A stretch of DNA of 24,518 bases from a virus (lineage: Duplodnaviria > Heunggongvirae > Uroviricota > Caudoviricetes). The notes below the pieces were generated by a model that saw only the letters and a list, made by a program, of their open reading frames with translations, was not told the origin of the DNA and made no database searches. The stretch lies in the IMG/VR virus record IMGVR_UViG_2778261643_000010, one strand, 5' to 3'. Below, in pieces: positions 10,591-21,562 of this stretch; positions within the stretch are counted from its first letter, which is position 1, and every line of letters starts with the position of its first letter. A program made the position numbers and the translations under genes.

Positions 10591-13500
10591 CTATATTTTT
10601 CCGCCTACGCCTTTAAACTTCTCAATAAACGAGACGATTTTCTGGAAAACTGCCTGTTTTTTCGTTTTATATTGCGGATTCAACGGACTAAGTTTTGGTA
10701 ATGTTTCGTTTAATTCTGTGCCATTTTCGGTGGCGTATTCGCGTTTTAAAGACGTGCGAATATAGCGTTTTGCTGCTTCTTCATTGAGGTTTTCTTCTTT
10801 TATCAATGCTTCTGCTTCACGTTGCTGTTCGCGTTGAGCAAACGTAAAGAATGCCTCAATGATACTGGCTTTGTCTGGTAAATCATCCAGGTTCGTTTGC
10901 TGAATAAAATCGACCACCAGGCCCTCTTTCGCCCGGTTTCCCAGGCTTGAACGAATTAAGCGTTTGACCTCTTCGATCATTTCGCCCTTGCCTTTATTTT
11001 GTCTGTTGTGTTCGAAAATCAGTCCAAGGATATAATCCAGGTTTATTTCCTGAGACTTCAGCAAATCGACCTCAAAAACTACATCATCCCAGTCAGTGGT
11101 TGATTTCTCTTTTTTCTCAGCTTCTTTCTCACGGCGCTGCCAGTCGCGAATATCGTTATAGGCAGAACGATAATCCTGAATCTTGCGATCAGCAGGGAGA
11201 CGAATTGTTTGCAATTCAGCGAACTTTTCATCATCCACATAATGTTCTGCTTTGAATTTTTCTACCGCAACAGGATCGCTAAGATCGATTTGTTGCAGGG
11301 CTTTTAGCGTGGCAAATTCATCATAGTTTTGCAGGATGTTCTCGGCACGCAGGTATTCGCCAAACAGTTTAACGAAGTCTTTCTTCTCTTTTTCACTTTC
11401 AATACTGGTAGGGTCAGGGAACCGTTGTTCCAGTTCTGAAACTACTGTCATGAAGCCGCGTTTAGCTTCACCAGTGGCAGCATCAGTAAAGCCTTCCATA
11501 TACTCTGCATAACTCTTTTCTAAAACCACATTTTTGGTATTTTTGTCACCAAACAGCGTTATGGCATCAATGGTTGAGCGTTCCAGATCCCGGAACGTGA
11601 CGATATTACCGAAGGTTTTAGTCGCGTCATAAATGCGGTTGGTGCGGGAGAATGCCTGCATCAGGCCGTGAAAACGCAAGTTTTTATCGACGAATAGCGT
11701 GTTCAATGTTGGAGCGTCGAAGCCGGTTAAAAACATCCCAACGACAATTAACAGATCGATATCCTGATTTTTAACCCGTTGGGCTAAATCACGATAGTAG
11801 TTCTGAAAACCGTTACTGTCGGTACTGAAGTTAGTTTTAAAATAGCTGTTATATTCACGAATTGCAGCGTCGAGAAACTCTTTAGCACTGCTGTCCATTG
11901 CGCTGGTATCAAAAGTTTCATCGGAAATTTCACCAATGGCATTTTGTTCTTCATTAGCGGCAAAGGAGAAGATTGTCGCAACACGTAGTGGTTTATAGGT
12001 AGCAGATTTATAAGCGGCTTCCTCTTGTAACCGTTTAAACGTCGCGTAATAGGCTTTCGCGGCATCCACGCTGCTCACTGCCAGCATGGCATTAAAACCT
12101 TTGGAGCCAGGGAAAGTACGGTGGGTTTTCTGGCGGAAGTTATTCAGGATATATTGCGTAATTTCCTGAATACGCATGGGATGAAGGAACGCCTGCTGAT
12201 TTTCAGCCGCACTCAGTTTTTTCTCGTCAGTTTCTGTCTCTAAAGACTTAAACTGTGGCCGCACATCGTTGTAGTCCACCTTGAATTTAAGCACTTTTTC
12301 ATCACGAATCGCATCGGTAATAACATATGAATGCAATTCACGGCCAAATACGCTGGCGGTCGTTTCTGAGCCTAAGGCGTTTTCCGGGAAAATAGGTGTG
12401 CCGGTAAAACCAAACTGATAATAGCGTTTGAATTTCTTCTTCAGGTTTTTCTGTGCTTCTCCAAACTGGCTGCGGTGACATTCATCAAATATAAACACCA
12501 CTTGCTGATTGTATACAGGCAGGTCGCTTTCTGCTTTCATCAGGTTATTAAGTTTCTGAATAGTGGTGACGATAATTTTGTTATCGTCCTTATCCAGATT
12601 TCGTTTAAGACCTGCGGTATTTTCCGAGCCGTTGACGCTGTCTGGCGAAAAACGCTGATATTCCTTCATGGTCTGGTAATCGAGGTCTTTCCTGTCGACC
12701 ACAAAGAAAACTTTATCAATAAAGTCCAGTTCTGTTGCCAGACGCGCGGCTTTAAAGCTGGTCAGGGTTTTACCGGAACCCGTGGTGTGCCAGATATACC
12801 CACCGCTTTCCGGTTTTGACCAGTTCTTCGCTGTAAAGGAGCTCTTAATTTTCCACAGAATGCGCTCGGTGGCGGCAATCTGGTACGGTCGCATCACCAG
12901 TAGCGTCTGACTACTGTCAAAAACGCTGTAGTTCACCAGAACATTCAGCAGAGTATGTTTCTGGAAAAAGGTAGCGGTAAAATCTTTGAGGTCTTTAATC
13001 AGCGTGTTGTCTGATTTCGCCCAGTTCATGGTGAAGTCAAAACTATTTTTATCGCGCTTTGTGGTGTTGGCAAAGTAACGGGTATCGGTGCCGTTAGAAA
13101 TGACAAACAGTTGCAGATACTTAAACAGGGAATTTTCGCTGTTAAAACTCTCTTTACTGTAACGATGTATCTGGTTGAAAGCCTCACGAATCGCCACGCC
13201 GCGCTTTTTCAGTTCGATTTGCACCAGAGGCAAGCCATTAACCAGGATAGTTACGTCATAACGGTTAGCGTGAGAACCTGCCTGTTCAAACTGCTGGATA
13301 ATCTGCACTTTGTTGCGCATGAGATTCTTTTTATCTATCAGATAGATGTTCTCAAGACGCCCGTCGTCAAAAATAAAGTCGCAAATATAGTCGATATGGA
13401 TTTTACGGGTCTTATCCAGAATGCCATCGCTCGGGTTGTCCAGATACTGCTCCGTGAAACGCCGCCACTCGCTGTCATTAAACACCACACCATTGAGGCT

Positions 13501-13707
13501 CTGAAGCTGTTCCCGAACATTGGACAGCATAGCCGACTGAGATTTTACGGATATAAATTCATAGCCCTGATTCCGCAGGTCCTGAATCAGTTCACGTTCC
13601 AGGTCCGATTCGCTCTGGTAGCTGTCGCCTGTTGGCTCAGCTTTGATGTACTTATCAAGGACGATAAAGTTATTGGATTCAGCAATAGTGTGTGTCTGAT
13701 GAGTCAT
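10591..13707 (-). CDS. hsdR: Type I restriction enzyme R subunit (HsdR), EcoR124-family (Type IC)
   Basis: Walker A motif [11 protein letters not shown] and DEAD-like [10 protein letters not shown] are present. The ORF track begins at 13767, but ATG 13707 ([11 protein letters not shown]) has an AAGGA ribosome-binding site and gives about 1038 aa, the length I recall for EcoR124I HsdR. Confidence 0.9.
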
Positions 13708-13828
13708 AGCGCATCCTTTGTGCCGTCTGGCAAGGGCCGGAAGGGAGTTAAGGGTGACTTCCGGCACGTAAAAAATAGTCTATATACAGACCGGATGTTA
13801 AGGTGGTCCGGTCGGTAGCAATGGTCAA

Positions 13829-15085
13829 TTAATTACTGACAGTTTCAGGTTTCGGGAAACTGAACAGTAAGTCACGATAGTACTCGTATTGTTTCTGGCG
13901 CAACTCGATTTCACGCGGGAGACCTTCGGTGATGGAGTTGGTCAGGGTGTCGAATTTATCGAGCAGAGCAGATATTCGCTCTTGTTTCTGTTTATCAGGC
14001 AATGGCACTGGTAATGTTTTTATAATATCTGCATTCAAGTTACTGACCGACCCGCTATTGATTTTACTTTCCCAATAATTTTTCACCTTTTTTGATGAAA
14101 GATAGTGATACAGATAATCAGCATTTAATTTTTCACCAAAATTGCTGATTGATGCCCATCCATCATGGATAGCTCCGGTTATCCTTAAAATATATGGTCT
14201 GCCAAAGCTCATAGAGTTAGAAATGACGAAATCACCGGGGTTCAAGATTCGCGATTTTTGGGCACCCTCTGCAGTTATTTTTTGTAAGGTTTTGTCAATG
14301 TATTTAGAGCCGGGGATAGTATCTCCGATTTTAATCCATGGGATACCATTTCCTTGTTCAGTAAGATAATTAACAATTGGCCTGGGGGATGCCCCACGTT
14401 GTATTTTGGCTACTTCTCCCAATGCCTTCCACTCAACCTCACCCTCTTTAAAACTCAGCAACTGGTCGCGATAGTAGTTGTACTGTTTTTTACGCATGTT
14501 AAGCTCAGCGGTAAGCTCAGCGGTAAGTGCAGTAAATTTGTCCAGAATCCGAACGATTTCAGACTGGATGGCGAGGGATTTTTCCGGATTATCCGGGCAG
14601 GGAATTGGGATGAGTAGTTTTGACATCAATGCATTTGAGCTTAGATTCGGTTGTGCTCCGCCCCCGGCGAGGATATAAATAGTCTCTGTATTTAACAATA
14701 AAAAATGGTATAAATAATTATTGTTTAGAATATTTTCTTTGGGTATGAATTTTCCAACCCGTTGGTTAAGATAACATTTTGTTCCTTTTTTATAAATTCC
14801 CACTTTTCCTGTAGTGGCACCTGACATTGCAATCAATATATTTCCCATAGATACCTCAAAGGAGGATAAATCTTCCTTGTAATCATTTAGTGAAAAGTAT
14901 TTCACCTCATCTAAGTCAACATTAAATCCATCTATATTTGTGATTCTAACTATCGGTAACCCAGTTTCTTTAAATAAGCTGCTTTTAAATGCAAATCCAT
15001 TTTTAAAATCACAAACATCCTTCAAGGGTTTCCACTCAACCTCAACCCCATCCAGCAATTTTTCCAGATAACTCAACTCGCTCAT
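13829..15085 (-). CDS. hsdS: Type I R-M specificity subunit (HsdS) with two target-recognition domains and a central TAEL-repeat region
   Basis: It has the conserved central block [54 protein letters not shown] and a conserved C-terminal block. The start overlaps the hsdM stop (ATGA). Confidence 0.9.
14501..14536. repeat. Two perfect 12-bp tandem repeats (AAGCTCAGCGGT) plus a degenerate third unit, encoding LTAEL-TAEL in hsdS
   Basis: Direct reading of 14501-14512 and 14513-14524, then the diverged unit AAGTGCAGTAAA. Confidence 0.85.
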
Positions 15086-16638
15086 TTCTGCACCTCGCAG
15101 CCTTCAATTTCAGCCACAATCGCATCAATATCTTTACGCAACTGGTCGATTTTGCTGACCGTGATTTTCAGCTCTGCATTCAACTCAGCGATATCGATAA
15201 TTTCGCGAGTATCTTTCGCTTCAACATAGCTGCTCACCGACAGGTTATAGTCATTAGCAACAACGGTCTCAAACGCGACTGATTTCGCCAGATGAGCAAC
15301 ATCTTCCTTGCTGGCAAATACCTGCATAATCTGTTCGATATGGGCATCGGTCAGGATATTGTTGTTGGTCTCTTTTTTGAATAGTTCGCTGGCGTCAATA
15401 AACTGAACTTTTGTATCTGTTTTATGTTTAGACAACACCAGAATGTTTACGGCAATGGTGGTGCCAAAGAACAGGTTCGGTGCCAGTGAAATCACGGTTT
15501 CGACATAGTTATTATCAACCAGATACTGACGGATTTTCTGCTCCGCGCCGCCACGGTAAAAAATACCCGGGAAGCAAACAATCGCAGCACGACCTTTGGC
15601 AGAAAGATAGTTCAGCGCATGTAGTACAAAGGCGAAGTCAGCTTTTGATTTGGGGGCCAGAACGCCAGCCGGGGCAAAACGTTCATCGTTAATCAGCGTC
15701 GGGTCATCGCTGCCAATCCATTTCACCGAATACGGCGGGTTAGAAACGATGGCATCAAACGGTTTTTCATCTCTGAAGTGTGGTTCAGTCAGCGTATTGC
15801 CCAGCTTGATATCAAACTTGTCGTAGTTGATGTTGTGCAAAAACATGTTCATACGCGCCAGGTTATAGGTCGTATGGTTGATTTCCTGACCAAAAAAACC
15901 TTCTTCGATGATATGGTCATCAAACTGTTTTTTAGCCTGCAACAACAGCGAACCGGAGCCTGCTGCCGGGTCGTAGATTTTGTTAACGTGGGTCTGCCCG
16001 TGCATAGCCAGTTGTGCAATCAGCTTAGAGACGTGCTGCGGTGTAAAGAACTCGCCGCCGGACTTACCGGCATTCGCGGCATAGTTAGAAATCAGGAACT
16101 CATAGGCGTCACCGAACAGATCAATCTGATGTTCGGTGAAGTCACCAAGTTTTAACCCTTCAACCCCTTTCAGAACCGCAGCCAGGCGGGCATTTTTATC
16201 TTTAACGGTGTTACCCAGGCGGTTACTGGTGGTATCGAAATCAGCAAACAAACCTTTGATGTCTGCTTCTGAAGGGTAGCCGTAAGCAGAACTTTCGATA
16301 GCAACGAAGATACTGTTTAAATCTGCATTCAGTCTGTCATTGGTATTTGCTTTCGCAGCTACGTTGCAGAAAAGCTGGCTTGGGTAGATGAAGTAGCCTT
16401 TGGTTTTGATGGCATCGTCTTTAATGTCATCAGTAATTACGCTGTCATCCAGTGCTGCATAACAGATGCTGTCATCATCGGCTTCCATATAGCTGGAAAA
16501 ATTTTCGCTGATAAAACGATAAAAAAGCGCGCCCAGAACGTACTGCTTAAAATCCCATCCATCGACTGAACCCCTGACATCGTTAGCAATTTGCCAGATC
16601 TGGCGATGAAGTTCTGCACGTTGTTGAATACTTGTCAT
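15082..16638 (-). CDS. hsdM: Type I R-M N6-adenine DNA methyltransferase (HsdM)
   Basis: Contains the AdoMet-binding motif [11 protein letters not shown] and the catalytic motif VSNPPYS. Confidence 0.9.
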
Positions 16639-16768
16639 TTTCTTCCACTTATTTCAGGCTTAAGTAATTGGCGGTGATTCTACAGCAACTTTGATGCTTT
16701 AGCAGTTCGGACATTAGGCAACGAATGACCTAATTAGAGCTTTTTGGAAAAGCGGTATTGTCGGTGCG

Positions 16769-16993
16769 ATGATAGCTATGTTTGGGTTCGCGATGGTGCA
16801 ATACAATGACGGTGAAAAGGTAAGCATCCAGTCTGATGGCTGGTATGGGCTGGATAGCCTGCAAAAAACCGCAGATAAAGCCTGTCAGCAATATGGAAAG
16901 TCTAAAGCCGTATATCAGCATAGCGCGAACGCTAATCCACATCTCGCGCCCGGCACGGGCGTTCAGAACACTATTTGGAAATGCGAACCATAA
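16769..16993 (+). CDS. Hypothetical small protein (74 aa)
   Basis: ORF only; no clear ribosome-binding site. It overlaps an antisense ORF (16730-16942), so the coding status is uncertain. Confidence 0.25.
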   Translation: MIAMFGFAMVQYNDGEKVSIQSDGWYGLDSLQKTADKACQQYGKSKAVYQHSANANPHLAPGTGVQNTIWKCEP

Positions 16994-17176
16994 CGCAGGT
17001 TGGCTTTTTACATCTTGGGCCGAATACTGATTCCGCGCTAAGTTGTTTGTGCGGAAGTGACACTGTGGAGCTTAGAAATAGTAAATACTGGTGGGCAACA
17101 AATTGAGCCTTCACACGCTCACCAGCACACACAAAAAATGGTTAAACAGCAAGGGAATTAATATCTCAGCGCGACA

Positions 17177-17314
17177 TTAAATAAGCCAGCGCACGCCTCT
17201 GTTTATCACTGACTTGAAAAACCATATCAGAACCACGATGAAGACAATCGCCAGCACTTGGCTAAGAACAGGCGCATTTAAAAATGCACTTAGAAACTGA
17301 AAAAATACAATCAT
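17177..17314 (-). CDS. Candidate small membrane protein (45 aa, MIVFFQFLSAFLNAPVLSQVLAIVFIVVLIWFFKSVINRGVRWLI)
   Basis: Has GAGGA eight nt upstream of the ATG and is strongly hydrophobic. It lies in an otherwise gene-poor spacer. Confidence 0.3.
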   Translation of the reverse strand: MIVFFQFLSAFLNAPVLSQVLAIVFIVVLIWFFKSVINRGVRWLI

Positions 17315-17782
17315 CAGGGTAATCCTCGTCAAATGTAAAGCTGTGTGCTCTCACGTTGACGTAGAAACCCAACCTCTATATAGTTGGATTCGGTGAAAGA
17401 AAGTCGTTAACGTGAACTTACGGCACATGTTTTCGGTATAAAAATCAGGGAACTGTGAATTCCTTGATGTAGTTGGGGCCTGTAATGCAGGCCCTATCTA
17501 TTAATGTCATGATTACATCTCAAATTTTCTCCTTATCATTATTATTTAATAAAATTCAATTAATAAAATATCCATTTCCTGTGTGTGCAAACACAGTATG
17601 AGGAAAATGGCCTCGTTGCAAGTGCATAACTTTGTGGATAACTCTGAAGGCGAATTTACATTTCGGCGCACCGCAAGCCAGATAAGCTGTGCGCAAAAAG
17701 CAATGGGGTGAGAAAAAAACTTTGAAGATATTGCGGCGACTAAATAATAGCCGTTATTCAATTATTCTGGATGGGATTTAAT

Positions 17783-18022
17783 ATGAACGAATGGAACATA
17801 GCAGCCAAAAGCCAGGAAGAAAGGAATAAAGTTAACGTTGACCTGGCTGCCAGGGGGGTTGCCTACAAAGAGCGATTGAACATACCTGTCATAGCTGAAC
17901 AGGTAGCCCGCGAGCAACCAGAGAATCTGCGCACCTATTTCATGGAACGTCTACGGCACTACCGGCAGTTAAGCCTCCAGTTGCCAAAAGGGAACGATCC
18001 GGCATATCAGAAAACAGAATAG
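17783..18022 (+). CDS. hot: Homolog of DNA polymerase III theta subunit (HolE-like; P1 Hot-like)
   Basis: [42 protein letters not shown] closely parallels E. coli theta as I remember it. The annotated ORF starts at 17771; ATG 17783 is preferred. Confidence 0.75.
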
Positions 18023-18033
18023 TTGTTAGGCTA

Positions 18034-18396
18034 TTACGCAATGCCCGCGCCATTCATAGCGGGTTTTAAGCCATATTCACCGTTGTAGAAATTACTCATG
18101 TTCCATTCATTGGGAAGCTCTTTTCTGTCCAATGTATAGTGGCGTACGATATAACGATCTTCATCTTCTTCGATGGACAGGCGGACATAGCCAATGTGAA
18201 TTACCGATACGGGCGGCGTCCGTATTGCATAGATGTCGCGGAGATATACCGGTAGCTCGACAAATGCGTCAGGTGCATCTGTGATGCTCATTTTTTCACA
18301 GTATTCATATAACGCATCGTTGATATCGTTAAGAGATTCATGATCGTATATTTCCAGGTAATTACCGCGATCGCGATGGTACTCGATTTTAGCCAT
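18034..18396 (-). CDS. Hypothetical protein (120 aa)
   Basis: ORF whose start abuts the stop of the upstream gene at 18397, so the two form an operon. Confidence 0.5.
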   Translation of the reverse strand: MAKIEYHRDRGNYLEIYDHESLNDINDALYEYCEKMSITDAPDAFVELPVYLRDIYAIRTPPVSVIHIGYVRLSIEEDEDRYIVRHYTLDRKELPNEWNMSNFYNGEYGLKPAMNGAGIA

Positions 18397-18981
18397 TCAA
18401 AATCCCCTGTTATCGTTTTGCATTTCTCTAATCCGGTTCAGAACTACTTCATGCTGGGCTTGGATAGCGGCTTTTTCGTTTTCAAGTCGGGCAATAGACA
18501 TCTCTAATTCTTTGCTGTACCAGGCGAGTTGGGCCAGGTTCATCCGGTTGTGGTCGAGAGTTGGAGACACTTCGACGCGATCCCTTTCTTCCTGCTTTAA
18601 TGAGAAGAGATTCATCTCATCCCTAGAGGAAAATTCAGCAACAATTTCTTGTTGATGATCCGGTCGCTGCGGCATCCTCGCCAGTATAAATGGCGGTTCT
18701 TTTGAAAACATGAATGTCGGTTCATAACGTGTTTTTACCCAGCTTGCCTGCTGTCTTTCGGCAAGTTCACAGGCTTCATCATAGTTATTTGCCAAACCAA
18801 GCACGGATGGACGGTCCCACGCCCCACCATTCAGACAATAAACTACAATTTTCCCGTCAGGTTGTGTAACCCCATATGGATGGTCCCACCAGGCGTCCAA
18901 CTGAGCTTTAGAGCGTTTCTCGTTAGGAGTGCAGTCAAAATTTTTGGGCAATACAGGATCGAGAGGAATGCGGGCAGGCAT
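18397..18981 (-). CDS. Hypothetical protein (194 aa), divergent from humD
   Basis: ORF with a C-terminal predicted coiled coil. Confidence 0.5.
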   Translation of the reverse strand: MPARIPLDPVLPKNFDCTPNEKRSKAQLDAWWDHPYGVTQPDGKIVVYCLNGGAWDRPSVLGLANNYDEACELAERQQASWVKTRYEPTFMFSKEPPFILARMPQRPDHQQEIVAEFSSRDEMNLFSLKQEERDRVEVSPTLDHNRMNLAQLAWYSKELEMSIARLENEKAAIQAQHEVVLNRIREMQNDNRGF

Positions 18982-19116
18982 AGCTAATTCCTTATTAACT
19001 GATTGGCAACGAGGTTACGCTGATCCGTTGGTGATGAATAGTAGCAAAGCGCACAAAATCATCTGCGGTGGTTGATGTACATAACGCGTTTGCACCAAAG
19101 GTGTCTCTTTAATGTA

Positions 19117-19136
19117 TGCTGTATAAATGAACAGTA
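19117..19136. promoter_or_regulatory. LexA (SOS) box TGCTGTATAAATGAACAGTA
   Basis: A perfect CTGT-N8-ACAG core overlapping a TATAAA -10-like hexamer, 20 bp upstream of the humD start. Confidence 0.75.
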
Positions 19137-19155
19137 TTATTGAGGTGAAAACGCT

Positions 19156-19545
19156 ATGGGCTTCCCTTCTCCTGCGGCGGATTATGTTGAAAGCAGAATT
19201 TCTCTTGATCAGCAACTAATCAGGCATCCATCAGCGACCTACTTCATGCGGGCGGCAGACAGCCATCACCGCGAGGGAATATTGCAGGGTGCTTTGCTGG
19301 TGGTTGATTCTTCGCTTACTCCAGTTGATGGTTCGCTGCTTGTGTGCGCTATGGAGGGTGAATATCGCATAAAGAGATACCGAAAGTATCCGCGCCAGCA
19401 CCTGGAGGATTTAAGCACCGGGAAGAAAGAGGCGTTACCAGTAGATGACGATGGTTACACGGGCAGTAATGCTGTTTTTGGTGTGATCACTCATGTCATC
19501 AATGATGCCCGAAGTGGGGAATTTGATGATTGTCCGGTTATTTAA
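19156..19545 (+). CDS. humD: UmuD'-like S24 peptidase-fold protein
   Basis: The N-terminus GFPSPAADYVE...LIRHPSATYF is the signature of the UmuD/MucA/ImpA family. GAGGTG ribosome-binding site. Confidence 0.8.
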   Translation: MGFPSPAADYVESRISLDQQLIRHPSATYFMRAADSHHREGILQGALLVVDSSLTPVDGSLLVCAMEGEYRIKRYRKYPRQHLEDLSTGKKEALPVDDDGYTGSNAVFGVITHVINDARSGEFDDCPVI

Positions 19546-19585
19546 GCTGCAAAGTGCTGGTGCTTTATGCCTGTGAAGTTTATAA

Positions 19586-19610
19586 TTGTGTACACATAAC
19601 GAGTACACGA
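19586..19610. promoter_or_regulatory. Putative Phd/Doc autoregulatory operator (10-bp palindrome TGTGTACACA plus GTACAC half-site) beside a TATAAT -10
   Basis: Perfect palindrome directly downstream of TATAAT (19581-19586). Confidence 0.45.
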
Positions 19611-19617
19611 GGTGTTT

Positions 19618-19839
19618 ATGCAATCCATTAACTTCCGTACCGCGCGCGGCAACCTTTCTGAAGTGCTCAACAATGTTGAAGCCGGGGAAGAGGTTGAAAT
19701 CACCCGCAGAGGCCGTGAGCCAGCAGTAATTGTCAGCAAGGCTACTTTTGAAGCCTACAAAAAAGCGGCGCTGGATGCTGAATTTGCATCCCTGTTTGAC
19801 ACCCTGGACTCCACCAACAAGGAACTGGTTAACCGATAA
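19618..19839 (+). CDS. phd: Phd antitoxin (prevent-host-death), 73 aa
   Basis: [41 protein letters not shown] is the Phd/YefM fold and appears near-identical to P1 Phd from memory. TAATG overlap with doc. Confidence 0.9.
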
Positions 19840-20219
19840 TGAGGCATATATCACCGGAAGAACTTATTGCGCTTCATGATGCGAATATAAACCGCTACGG
19901 CGGCTTGCCGGGAATGTCAGATCCGGGTAGGGCAGAGGCCATTATCGGGAGAGTTCAGGCCAGAGTTGCCTACGAAGAGATCACCGACCTTTTCGAAGTC
20001 TCCGCCACCTACCTGGTGGCTACAGCGAGAGGGCATATATTCAATGATGCCAATAAGCGTACCGCGCTAAACAGTGCGCTGTTATTTCTACGCCGTAACG
20101 GGGTGCAGGTATTTGATTCACCTGAACTGGCAGACCTTACCGTAGGGGCTGCGACCGGAGAGATATCTGTATCTTCTGTCGCCGACACGTTACGTAGATT
20201 GTATGGTTCCGCGGAGTAG
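19839..20219 (+). CDS. doc: Doc toxin (Fic-fold kinase), 126 aa
   Basis: Contains the Fic-type motif [11 protein letters not shown]. Same size and position as P1 Doc. Confidence 0.9.
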
Positions 20220-20223
20220 ATTA

Positions 20224-20403
20224 ATGGCACGTAAATACAACAAATTGTCCCGTGAAGCGTTAAAGATGCTTCTTGATGGCGTGAGTCGCCGCGAGGTAAA
20301 GCAATACCTGGTTGGTAAGCAAATTGGTGCCAGGACCGCTATTGCTGTGTTATGCCGTCAGGAAATGGTTGTGCTTAAACAGAGAATGCCGGGCAGCAGA
20401 TAA
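20224..20403 (+). CDS. Small basic hypothetical protein (60 aa), in the position of the P1 post-doc gene
   Basis: ORF with GCGGAG upstream of the ATG. Confidence 0.4.
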   Translation: MARKYNKLSREALKMLLDGVSRREVKQYLVGKQIGARTAIAVLCRQEMVVLKQRMPGSR

Positions 20404-20430
20404 AGCCCAATCAGTGATTAAAGGTGTGAT

Positions 20431-21474
20431 GTGAAAGCCGTAATTACTCCATTTGTACAGAAAGAGCTTGGCCTCGCCACGTTCAAAGTGGACCAGGAGG
20501 TCAGAAAGCTGGTGGAGGCTGGCCGTAAATTTATTATGGAGCCGGTGCCGCGTGAGTTAATCGAGCACATGGACGACGGCCTCGTTGTTTCCGAGCAAAC
20601 TATGGCAACAAATGAGGCGTTGCAGCCGTTTTTTAACAGCGATGAACTGTTTCGCCGTATTGGTGGAATTGACTCGCTGGTGGCGTGGTTGCGCAGGAAA
20701 GAGGGGCAATGCCAGGCCGCAGATCGTAGTTGGTGTGACAACCATATTGTCCACGCTGAACGAGACAATAGCGCGGTGTTGTTGTGCTGGCATCACGATA
20801 ACCATTACCGGATGCGTGGTTTTAATGAGCTGAAAGAAACGCTGCATAATAATCGCGTTAACTGGATACTGGATGTCGCCCGTCAGGAAATGGGGCTTTC
20901 AGATGGCCATGATTTAAGTATTCAGGAACTGTGCTGGTGGGCTTTCATGCGCAACATGATGCACCTGATGCCGGAAGAAGTCTGCCGCATATCAATAAAT
21001 AAGATGAAGGCTACTCCGCAGGATAGCGGACCTCTGAAAGAGGCGGATATTCGCCCGTATGACGATCGCGCTATAGCATATGTTCAGATGATGGAAGAAC
21101 GCGCCGCGCCGATGCGTGCAAAAGTATGTCCTGTGGATGTTGACTCCGACCCAGGTATGGCGCATTTCAAAATACCAAAACTTCAATCGCTAAAATTACC
21201 TGAGTACATGGACTTTGTTGCTTCCCGTCCATGCTGTGGCTGTGGAGCTGCGGGAGCTGGCGCTCACATTACGCCTTATATCGTTCGTCATAGTCGATTA
21301 TGCGCGCATGACATTTATGCTATTCCTCTGTGCCAGTCATGCCAGCGTGATATTGAGCGTGACCGCGATAATTGGGAGAAAACACACGGTAGGCTGGCGA
21401 TGCATCAACGATTGTTCTTTGATTACGCGCTTGGAGTCGGCGCTATCACAAGTCACTCGTCGAGCGTTAGATAA
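20431..21474 (+). CDS. Cysteine-rich hypothetical protein (347 aa), in the position of the P1 post-doc genes
   Basis: GTG start with AAGGTG ribosome-binding site. Contains [12 protein letters not shown] and CQSCQ motifs. Confidence 0.5.
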
Positions 21475-21475
21475 A

Positions 21476-21492
21476 ATTGCTCTAATGTATTG
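21476..21492 (+). promoter_or_regulatory. C1 operator-like 17-mer ATTGCTCTAATGTATTG overlapping a candidate promoter (TTGCTA -35, TATTAT -10)
   Basis: Matches the consensus at 14 of 17 positions and sits upstream of the putative lpa. Confidence 0.45.
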
Positions 21493-21562
21493 CTATTTAT
21501 TTAATCGAGGGTATTATATTCCACGTTGATTAGTTGACATGGGCTAATCAGTAGGTGACAGG

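Follow-up and report, generated by a model that had tools for sequence, protein, structure and literature searches.

A P1-like phage-plasmid with a complete, probably active EcoR124-family (Type IC) restriction-modification cassette as accessory cargo

The families of Type I restriction-modification systems have been defined by cross-hybridisation and subunit complementation, and they also differ in gene order: Type IA and IB loci begin with hsdR, while Type IC loci are arranged hsdM-hsdS-hsdR, with hsdR transcribed from its own promoter. The Type IC prototypes, EcoR124I and EcoR124II, are encoded by the plasmids R124 and R124/3. The number of TAEL repeats in the specificity subunit fixes the spacing of the target half-sites in Type IC enzymes, and EcoDXXI, another member of the family, has three such repeats (PMC3874165). 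A link between Type IC systems and bacteriophage P1 was published as early as 1997, when Tyndall et al., according to the title cited in reviews, described Type IC hsd loci flanked by P1 DNA. The same link is written into the P1 GenBank record, in which homology 'downstream of EcoDXXI hsd / R124/3 hsdR' ends at P1 84482 and homology to 'upstream of EcoDXXI hsd' is placed at phd-doc. More recently, Venturini et al. (2019) identified the interval between pap and lxr as the hot-spot RD-5 and reported that in pSvP1 a Type I system stands there in place of the pmg genes (PMC6906374), although that study neither called the system Type IC nor connected it with the 1997 work.

The locus described here lies in a window (the whole stretch of DNA analysed) of 24,518 nucleotides from a member of the Caudoviricetes, IMG/VR record IMGVR_UViG_2778261643_000010. 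It is the locus already published in 2019, since pSvP1 (MN510446) is identical to the window at 100% of nucleotides over the cassette and both of its junctions; pSvP1 differs in having, on the right-hand side of the cassette, approximately 3.7 kb of IS91-family DNA that is missing from the window. A first-pass annotation had proposed an EcoR124-family operon as an accessory insertion into a P1-like backbone. The analysis presented below agrees with the family and the cargo status, and it is very likely that the window carries a complete, probably active Type IC cassette, the features of which are listed in Table 1.

Table 1. Features of the Type IC cassette and its flanks (window coordinates)
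Feature	Position	Strand	Basis or remark
C1 operator ATTGCTCTAATAAGTCT (OpmgT/Op88 in P1) and PpmgT promoters	10326..10370	+	P1 annotation, alignment to P1
Intrinsic-terminator hairpin, T-run on the hsdR-transcribed strand	10375..10397	-	z -4.3; P1 and P7 also have this DNA
Conserved 28-codon hydrophobic ORF, MNTAFKIIMAAIYFWLFSIIFGGIVAHG	10425..10511	+	Kept in window, P1, P7 and 673R5
Whole cassette (hsdM, hsdS, hsdR)	10516-16743		6.2-kb segment
Cassette DNA 3' of hsdR	10516..10590	.	Holds hairpin 10546-10575
hsdR, restriction/translocase subunit, 1038 aa from ATG	10591..13707	-	Aligned to 2w00; Pfam domains
Promoter-like site TTAACA-18-TATTTT, candidate separate hsdR promoter	13772..13801	-	Consensus scan only
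hsdS, specificity subunit, 418 aa	13829..15085	-	Two Methylase_S domains (Pfam)
TRD2-encoding DNA, HsdS residues 222-368	13982..14422	-	GC 0.38
Two tandem TAEL codon repeats, central conserved helix	14501..14524	-	TAELTAEL, HsdS residues 188-195
TRD1-encoding DNA, HsdS residues 19-158	14612..15031	-	GC 0.32
hsdM, Type IC methyltransferase subunit, 518 aa	15082..16638	-	TIGR00497, N6_Mtase, HsdM_N
hsdM leader, presumably the promoter region of hsdM-hsdS with ribosome-binding site	16639..16743	-	Moves with cassette
Phage ORF, 74 aa, phrog_7757; backbone, outside hsd	16769..16993	+	Full-length PHROG match, E 3e-54

The ORF list of the window contains three adjoining minus-strand ORFs, whose coordinates agree exactly with those first annotated and which follow the hsdM-hsdS-hsdR order that the window shares with EcoR124I/EcoR124II. 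All three reading frames are full length and free of frameshifts, and every nuclease, helicase and methyltransferase motif that was checked is intact. The HsdM protein matches TIGR00497 with 646 bits (NCBIfam) and contains the N6_Mtase and HsdM_N domains (Pfam), the AdoMet motif DPAAGSG at residue 223 and the catalytic NPPY at residue 300. It differs from EcoR124 HsdM (7bst_D) by 8 substitutions in 518 residues (98.5% identity), while the match to the Type IA subunit EcoKI HsdM reaches merely E 2e-17. The consensus scan of the leader sequence found no strong consensus promoter upstream of hsdM.

The HsdR subunit places the system in the same family. It matches TIGR00348 with 767 bits (NCBIfam) and contains the HSDR_N, SWI2_SNF2, T1R_D3 and EcoR124_C domains (Pfam), the last of which, the family-specific C-terminal PF12008, is covered over positions 1-260 of its 260 at 241.5 bits. 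The motifs found comprise D151, E165-x-K167, QxxxY, GSGKT, DECH, TGTP and QAFSRTNR, and the protein is approximately 99% identical to EcoR124I HsdR. The open frame extends upstream to a GTG at 13767 (10591-13767, 1058 aa); nevertheless, the 1038-aa EcoR124I subunit (2w00) is matched over its full length by residues 21-1058 of this long frame (2288 bits), the internal ATG is preceded by an AAGGA ribosome-binding site, and transcripts from the promoter-like site, which lies in the 121 bp separating hsdS from hsdR, would begin beyond the GTG. Together, these observations indicate that the internal start giving about 1038 aa, as originally annotated, is the right one. In relatives, hsdR is likewise annotated by PGAP as a 3117-bp gene, and the NCBI label on one hsdR pseudogene reads 'EcoR124 family'. 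With HsdR and HsdM at 98.5-99% identity to the solved EcoR124I/II subunits, the clustering with this family that had been predicted is evident, and the operon can be read as an intact, ordinary EcoR124-family (Type IC) restriction-modification system.

The specificity subunit combines a conserved framework with variable target-recognition domains (TRDs). Its layout is that of Type IC subunits, namely a short N-terminal constant region, TRD1, a central constant region with the TAEL repeats noted in the initial reading, TRD2 and a C-terminal constant region that resembles the central one. The three constant regions match those of EcoR124 HsdS exactly or almost exactly, whereas both TRDs differ and are unrelated to those of EcoR124I (GAA / RTCG), so that the window HsdS is predicted to recognise a different target, that is, to have a specificity unlike that of EcoR124I. 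The EcoR124I subunit also has two TAEL repeats, and thus a spacing of the EcoR124I type, with methylated adenines 7 bp apart, is predicted for the window enzyme. The TRD-encoding DNA is AT-rich compared with the backbone (GC 0.47), and the domains are modular: TRD1 recurs at no less than 99% identity in many HsdS proteins that carry an unrelated TRD2, and TRD2 recurs at the same level (at least 99%) beside many unrelated TRD1 partners. Internal DNA repeats, D2 and D8, connect the central and C-terminal constant regions of hsdS, and shuffling of TRDs inside the gene probably generates new specificities. The exact protein is found on approximately 110 public contigs under a generic name, and the look-up of its exact cluster gave no specificity name. 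No named or characterised homologue occurs among the 8,000 matches listed, all of which bear generic names, and an accession-based literature search for a recognition motif returned only the pSvP1 paper, which contains no motif. The allele is rare, being present in two strains among 5,426 complete genomes, while about 24% of complete E. coli genomes contain an EcoR124-family hsdR.

On the left, a 98.5% match to P1 continues as far as 10515, the position equivalent to P1 84482. The breakpoint (10515|10516) lies directly after the stop codon of the 28-codon ORF, for which the Pfam, NCBIfam and PHROG searches gave no match. Downstream of hsdR, the DNA is thus P1 sequence from after pap to 84482, as in the P1-flanked Type IC loci: EcoDXXI shares the family and this breakpoint with the window, and the EcoR124I/II loci have the identical 84-bp P1-derived DNA, although they reside on a conjugative plasmid and not in an otherwise P1-like phage-plasmid backbone. 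In many conjugative plasmids the P1 DNA is reduced to these last 84 bp, from window 10432, and the complete pap|hsdR junction occurs in 257 plasmids. The segment that follows hsdR within the cassette is shared by the window and phage 673R5 and missing from P1 and P7; its hairpin has a 10-12 bp stem, no T-run and a fold energy of -26.8 kcal/mol (z -4.7), and the z-scores of the two hairpins on this side range from -4.3 to -5.1. A hydrophobic-peptide gene and hairpins, once taken as marks of an insertion, are indeed present; however, the ORF and the terminator hairpin also belong to the P1/P7 backbone and are therefore no signs of insertion.

Collinearity with P1 and P7 ends at 10515 and resumes at 17120. 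P1 has pmgT-pmgU-pmgV where the window has the cassette, and neither P1 nor P7 has hsd genes here, which supports the description of the operon as accessory cargo. The original placement between the ppp block and hot identified the correct P1-like slot and can be refined: the cassette replaces pmgT-pmgU-pmgV between pap with the 28-codon ORF on one side and the phrog_7757 ORF with upfM-hot on the other. It thereby occupies the variable pap-lxr slot RD-5. Homology of the hsdM leader to other hsd carriers stops at 16731 or 16743. The 74-aa ORF that follows matches nothing but a PHROG of unknown function in the Pfam, NCBIfam and PHROG searches, and in a P1-like plasmid without hsd at that place its segment immediately precedes hot. 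In EcoDXXI the upstream DNA matches P1 phd-doc, according to the P1 annotation, whereas in the window hsdM is not joined directly to phd-doc (P1 87969 onward) but is separated from phd by 2.8 kb of backbone comprising the phrog_7757 ORF, upfM-hot, lxr and humD. The junction that keeps hot-lxr-humD was found in 18 plasmids, compared with 661 that have the classical hsdM|phd junction, and is a minority variant inside the same kind of locus. This junction and the rare hsdS allele are the mildly unusual details of the system.

Several P1-like elements carry a Type IC cassette after pap, including phage vB_EcoM-673R5 (ON470615), phi456 (OR339795) and the IncY plasmid pRHB27-C18_2 (CP057418), all with hsdS alleles other than that of the window. 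The complete P1-like genome of pRHB27-C18_2 has the window architecture at 97% identity. The cassette of 673R5 adjoins phd-doc directly. Relatives frequently carry the insertion sequences IS91/ISEc84, IS1203 and IS903 close to this region.

How the cassette reached its slot and whether it functions can be read in more than one way. An inserted island, as initially proposed, would suggest transposition or site-specific integration; the insertion sequences frequent around the region, together with the involvement of insertion sequences in pSvP1 suggested by Venturini et al. (PMC6906374), favour such an arrival. However, the repeat search for terminal repeats or target duplications at the cassette ends gave, apart from the duplications inside hsdS, nothing above chance level; positions 10516 and 16743 lack inverted and direct repeats alike, and neither the window ORF list nor the flank search revealed a transposase, integrase or recombinase in or beside the cassette. 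A single left breakpoint is, moreover, common to the 257 plasmids and to the classical EcoDXXI and R124/3 loci, and different elements hold unrelated cargo between identical conserved flanks, which makes transposition or site-specific integration very improbable. The cassette represents a replacement within the known hot-spot RD-5, most likely exchanged among conjugative plasmids and P1-like elements through homologous recombination, for which the conserved P1 flanks offer the substrate. Such exchange cannot account for every transfer, since the one chromosomal Type IC copy examined has no P1 flanks. A broader proposal has two parts, which we consider unlikely to hold together. In the first, P1-like elements would be the original home of Type IC systems: P1-like phage-plasmids would have been the main vehicle for all enterobacterial Type IC systems, P1 would be a derivative that lost the cassette and kept the hsdR-oriented terminator, and the form that retains hot-lxr-humD and replaces only pmgT-V would be an evolutionary intermediate. 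The second part starts from the retained C1 operator and PpmgT promoters, which face the 3' end of hsdR; convergent, C1-repressed transcription from PpmgT into hsdR might turn restriction down upon prophage induction by an antisense effect.

With respect to function, relatives offer some grounds for regarding the operon as a decaying or modification-only remnant that methylates or is inert but does not restrict, since IS1203 interrupts hsdR in an otherwise 100% identical ETEC1731 plasmid, and the annotation of 673R5 shows both hsdR and hsdM in fragments. These cases suggest that loss of restriction may be tolerated, or even selected, in relatives. In the window itself, the full-length frames, the intact motifs and a divergence of only about 1% from a crystallised active enzyme speak against decay, and a remnant is accordingly quite improbable. 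A system similar to EcoprrI, coupled to the abortive-infection anticodon nuclease PrrC, was also considered, because EcoprrI is itself a member of the Type IC family (reviews, including PMC3874165) and automated annotation of one relative names its HsdS 'EcoprrI subunit S'. The gene map refutes this proposal, leaving it a negligible probability: the start of hsdS overlaps the hsdM stop by 4 bases and hsdR is set apart by a gap of just 121 bp, which leaves no place for prrC, a gene that EcoprrI-type loci carry between hsdM and hsdS, and the cassette holds no further family-matching ORF.

By analogy with EcoR124I, two HsdM subunits and one HsdS would form a methyltransferase that marks both strands of a bipartite target, and the addition of HsdR would yield an R2M2S1 endonuclease that binds unmethylated targets, translocates DNA at the expense of ATP and cuts at distant sites. 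The cassette may thus shield the lysogen, and hence the prophage, from incoming unmodified phages and plasmids, while the DNA of progeny phages would be marked by its methylation. Type IC restriction is controlled by assembly and not by ClpXP (reviews, including PMC3874165); control of this type permits establishment in naive hosts and would therefore suit a mobile element.

As a discovery the locus carries little weight, as it belongs to a textbook restriction family and is correctly annotated in public records. Nonetheless, the element probably endows its E. coli host with an uncharacterised restriction specificity, and cassettes of this kind in P1-like phage-plasmids may affect the entry of phages, plasmids and resistance genes into livestock and clinical E. 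coli. The combination of one conserved slot with the shuffling of two recognition domains exemplifies how restriction diversity can be generated on mobile elements.

The cassette between pap and upfM-hot was confirmed to be a Type I restriction-modification operon of the EcoR124 family, a feature that is already known and ordinary; what is new here is confined to an allele of uncharacterised specificity and a junction of a minority type. The three ORFs lie exactly where the first-pass annotation had placed them (10591-16638), in the order M-S-R on the minus strand, and Pfam, NCBIfam and PADLOC all identify their products as Type I subunits. The proposed Type IC assignment is settled by comparison with solved structures, as HsdR aligns with EcoR124I HsdR (2w00) over all 1038 residues (2288 bits, approximately 1 % substitutions) and carries the family-specific EcoR124_C domain, while HsdM differs from EcoR124 HsdM (7bst_D) at 8 of 518 positions. 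The internal hsdR start suggested earlier is the true one: the ATG at 13707 (gene 10591-13707, 1038 aa) is preceded by an AAGGA ribosome-binding site, which the upstream GTG lacks, and PGAP annotates the same 3117-bp gene in relatives. The 121-bp hsdS-hsdR gap contains a promoter-like site (TTAACA-18-TATTTT, 13801-13772), from which transcription would likely begin at the GTG or downstream of it. An embedded prrC-type gene is ruled out by the 4-base overlap of hsdM and hsdS. Every motif checked in HsdR and HsdM is intact.

Features of the hsd cassette and its flanks (nucleotide positions in the window; residue numbers for protein motifs)
Feature	Position	Strand	Remarks
Cassette proper	10516-16743		
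hsdM	15082-16638	minus	ORF 518 aa; Pfam, NCBIfam, PADLOC
hsdS	13829-15085	minus	ORF 418 aa; Pfam, NCBIfam, PADLOC
hsdR	10591-13767	minus	ORF 1058 aa counted from GTG; Pfam, NCBIfam, PADLOC
HsdR nuclease motif	D151 and E165-x-K167		intact
HsdR QxxxY	residues 179-183		intact
HsdR GSGKT	residue 310		intact
HsdR DECH	residue 408		intact
HsdR TGTP	residue 435		intact
HsdR QAFSRTNR	residue 684		intact
HsdM DPAAGSG	residue 223		intact
HsdM NPPY	residue 300		intact
C1 operator and PpmgT promoters	10326-10370	plus	retained; facing 3' end of hsdR
Intrinsic terminator hairpin	10375-10397		minus-strand T-run; ~P1 84342-84364
Hydrophobic ORF	10425-10511	plus	28 codons, MNTAFKIIMAAIYFWLFSIIFGGIVAHG; good ribosome-binding site
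phrog_7757 ORF	16769-16993	plus	74 aa; full-length PHROG match, function unknown

The specificity subunit matches EcoR124 HsdS in its constant regions only (N-terminal 1-18, central ~159-221 and C-terminal ~369-418), and both of its target-recognition domains (TRDs) are different. The TAEL repeats noted earlier number two (residues 188-195). Type IC enzymes with two repeats (EcoR124I) recognize targets with 7 bp between the methylated adenines, and those with three (EcoR124II, EcoDXXI and EcoprrI) targets with 8 bp (PMC3874165, PMC12707154); the two repeats thus predict a bipartite target with EcoR124I spacing, the half-sites of which would be unlike those of EcoR124I. Among 120 homologues, TRD1 and TRD2 were each found again at at least 99 % identity beside unrelated partner TRDs, the pattern classically expected from TRD shuffling. 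The GC content is 0.32-0.38 in the TRD-coding DNA, 0.43 in the cassette and 0.47 in the flanks.

The window is a segment of a P1-like (Punavirus) phage-plasmid and has the same gene order as P1, P7 and numerous E. coli plasmids of 93-115 kb. Positions 6000-10515 correspond to P1 79968-84482 at 98.5 % identity, and the match resumes at 17120 (P1 85929, upfM-hot) at only 82 %, with a third match from 18414 (lxr to pdcB) at 97 %. The view of the island as accessory cargo absent from reference P1 is borne out, since it lies between collinear P1 segments and neither P1 nor P7 has hsd genes there: pmgT-pmgU-pmgV occupy the corresponding 1.45 kb in P1, and 4.3 kb of other genes the interval in P7. 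Homology with other hsd carriers ends on the right at 16731 or 16743, and a search for repeats at the cassette ends revealed neither inverted nor direct repeats, nor was a recombinase found there. The phrog_7757 ORF, in the 376 bp immediately beyond the right end, is assigned to the backbone because in NZ_CP086513, a P1-like plasmid lacking hsd at this position, the same segment is directly upstream of hot. No CDS is listed for it in the gene tables of two relatives, L004 (the ETEC1731 plasmid) and L005, the PLSDB tables being incomplete. The backbone itself is mosaic, the upfM-hot block (17120-18013) being 82 % identical to P1 and 77 % to P7, and lxr-pdcB (18414-21498) 97 %; the intervening stretch without a P1 match (18014-18413) contains an ORF (18034-18396, phrog_5797) that P7 does match, with upf93.6 in the equivalent place.

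The association of Type IC loci with P1 DNA has been described previously. According to the annotation of the P1 GenBank record, the EcoDXXI hsd locus is matched on its downstream side by 84263-84482 (96 % identity) and on its upstream side by 87969-88647 (phd-doc; 98 %), and the R124/3 DNA that follows hsdR downstream is matched by 84399-84482 (98 %). The two stretches ending at 84482 stop exactly at the left breakpoint in the window. That Type IC hsd loci are flanked by P1 DNA is the title statement of Tyndall et al. (1997), as given in citing papers. Five hot-spots of recombination in P1 were defined by Venturini et al. (2019, PMC6906374), one of which, RD-5, lies 'between pap and lxr'; there they described a Type I system in place of pmg genes in pSvP1 (MN510446), which is 100 % identical to the window over the cassette and both junctions.

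The small hydrophobic-peptide ORF and hairpins that the first-pass annotation took as signs of insertion do exist, but the 28-codon ORF and the 10375-10397 hairpin are also present in P1 and P7 and are not insertion scars. The left breakpoint (10515|10516) is just past the stop codon of this ORF, where the variable slot starts. The ORF is conserved in the window, P1, P7 and the P1-like phage 673R5, with two amino-acid changes in total; no match was found in Pfam, NCBIfam or PHROGs, and no CDS is annotated at its position in the P1 record. It could encode a leader peptide or a small membrane peptide. The strong 10375-10397 hairpin is oriented as an hsdR terminator, although the P1 annotation shows no gene on the minus strand between pap and lxr that would need one. 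It may be left over from an ancestral hsd cassette of P1, or may shield pap from antisense transcription. A further hairpin (10546-10575), which lacks a T-run, is part of the cassette. The C1 operator has one mismatch to OpmgT of P1. Since the PpmgT promoters face hsdR and the intervening DNA showed no terminator on the plus strand, prophage induction might lead to antisense transcription into hsdR.

Of 5,426 complete E. coli genomes, 1,327 contain EcoR124-family hsdR; 860 of the locations are chromosomal and 667 are on plasmids. The pap|hsdR junction is complete in 257 plasmid records, and in many conjugative plasmids the match starts only at 10432, which leaves the 84-bp piece of P1 DNA already described for R124/3. 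On the right, the classical hsdM|phd junction occurs in 661 plasmids versus only 18 with the type seen here. The exact hsdS allele was present in three complete assemblies of two strains (ETEC1731, 100 %; AW1.7, 98.4 %), and the exact HsdS protein on approximately 110 contigs of a large collection. A chromosomal Type IC operon (NZ_CM125652.1, 4052-10117; 95 % identity), in an island beside GTPase and dynamin-family genes, shares homology over the genes alone (10591-16641) without P1 flanks, and therefore chromosomal and plasmid copies differ in their surroundings, at least in this example. The complete relative CP057418, an IncY plasmid with the same architecture, carries cre, pacAB, darB and tail genes, and no Type III res/mod is annotated anywhere in its record; the Type IC cassette is therefore the sole restriction-modification nuclease annotated on the element in this lineage. 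Between the mat and lxc homologues of CP057418.1 (52894-54443) lie two small hypothetical genes. The lack of an annotated res/mod and the presence of these genes agree with Venturini et al. (2019, PMC6906374), who reported that res-mod (RD-1) was replaced in the P1 variants under study and noted its absence from variants of this type.

By analogy with the near-identical EcoR124I, M2S1 would methylate the bipartite target and R2M2S1 would translocate DNA and cleave where the target is unmethylated. Homologous recombination in the conserved flanks would be the simplest mechanism of cassette exchange. Relatives often carry a damaged hsdR, a caveat on the activity of the system: IS1203 lies inside hsdR of the 100 %-identical ETEC1731 plasmid (NZ_CP122822.1, 6234-7447), and hsdR and hsdM of 673R5 (ON470615.2, 6679-12630) are annotated as several fragments; either errors in sequencing or genuine decay may lie behind this. 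Type IC restriction is controlled by assembly via an R1 intermediate rather than by ClpXP proteolysis, permitting efficient establishment in naive cells, according to a review. Such assembly control fits a phage-plasmid, for which entry into a new host is a recurrent event.
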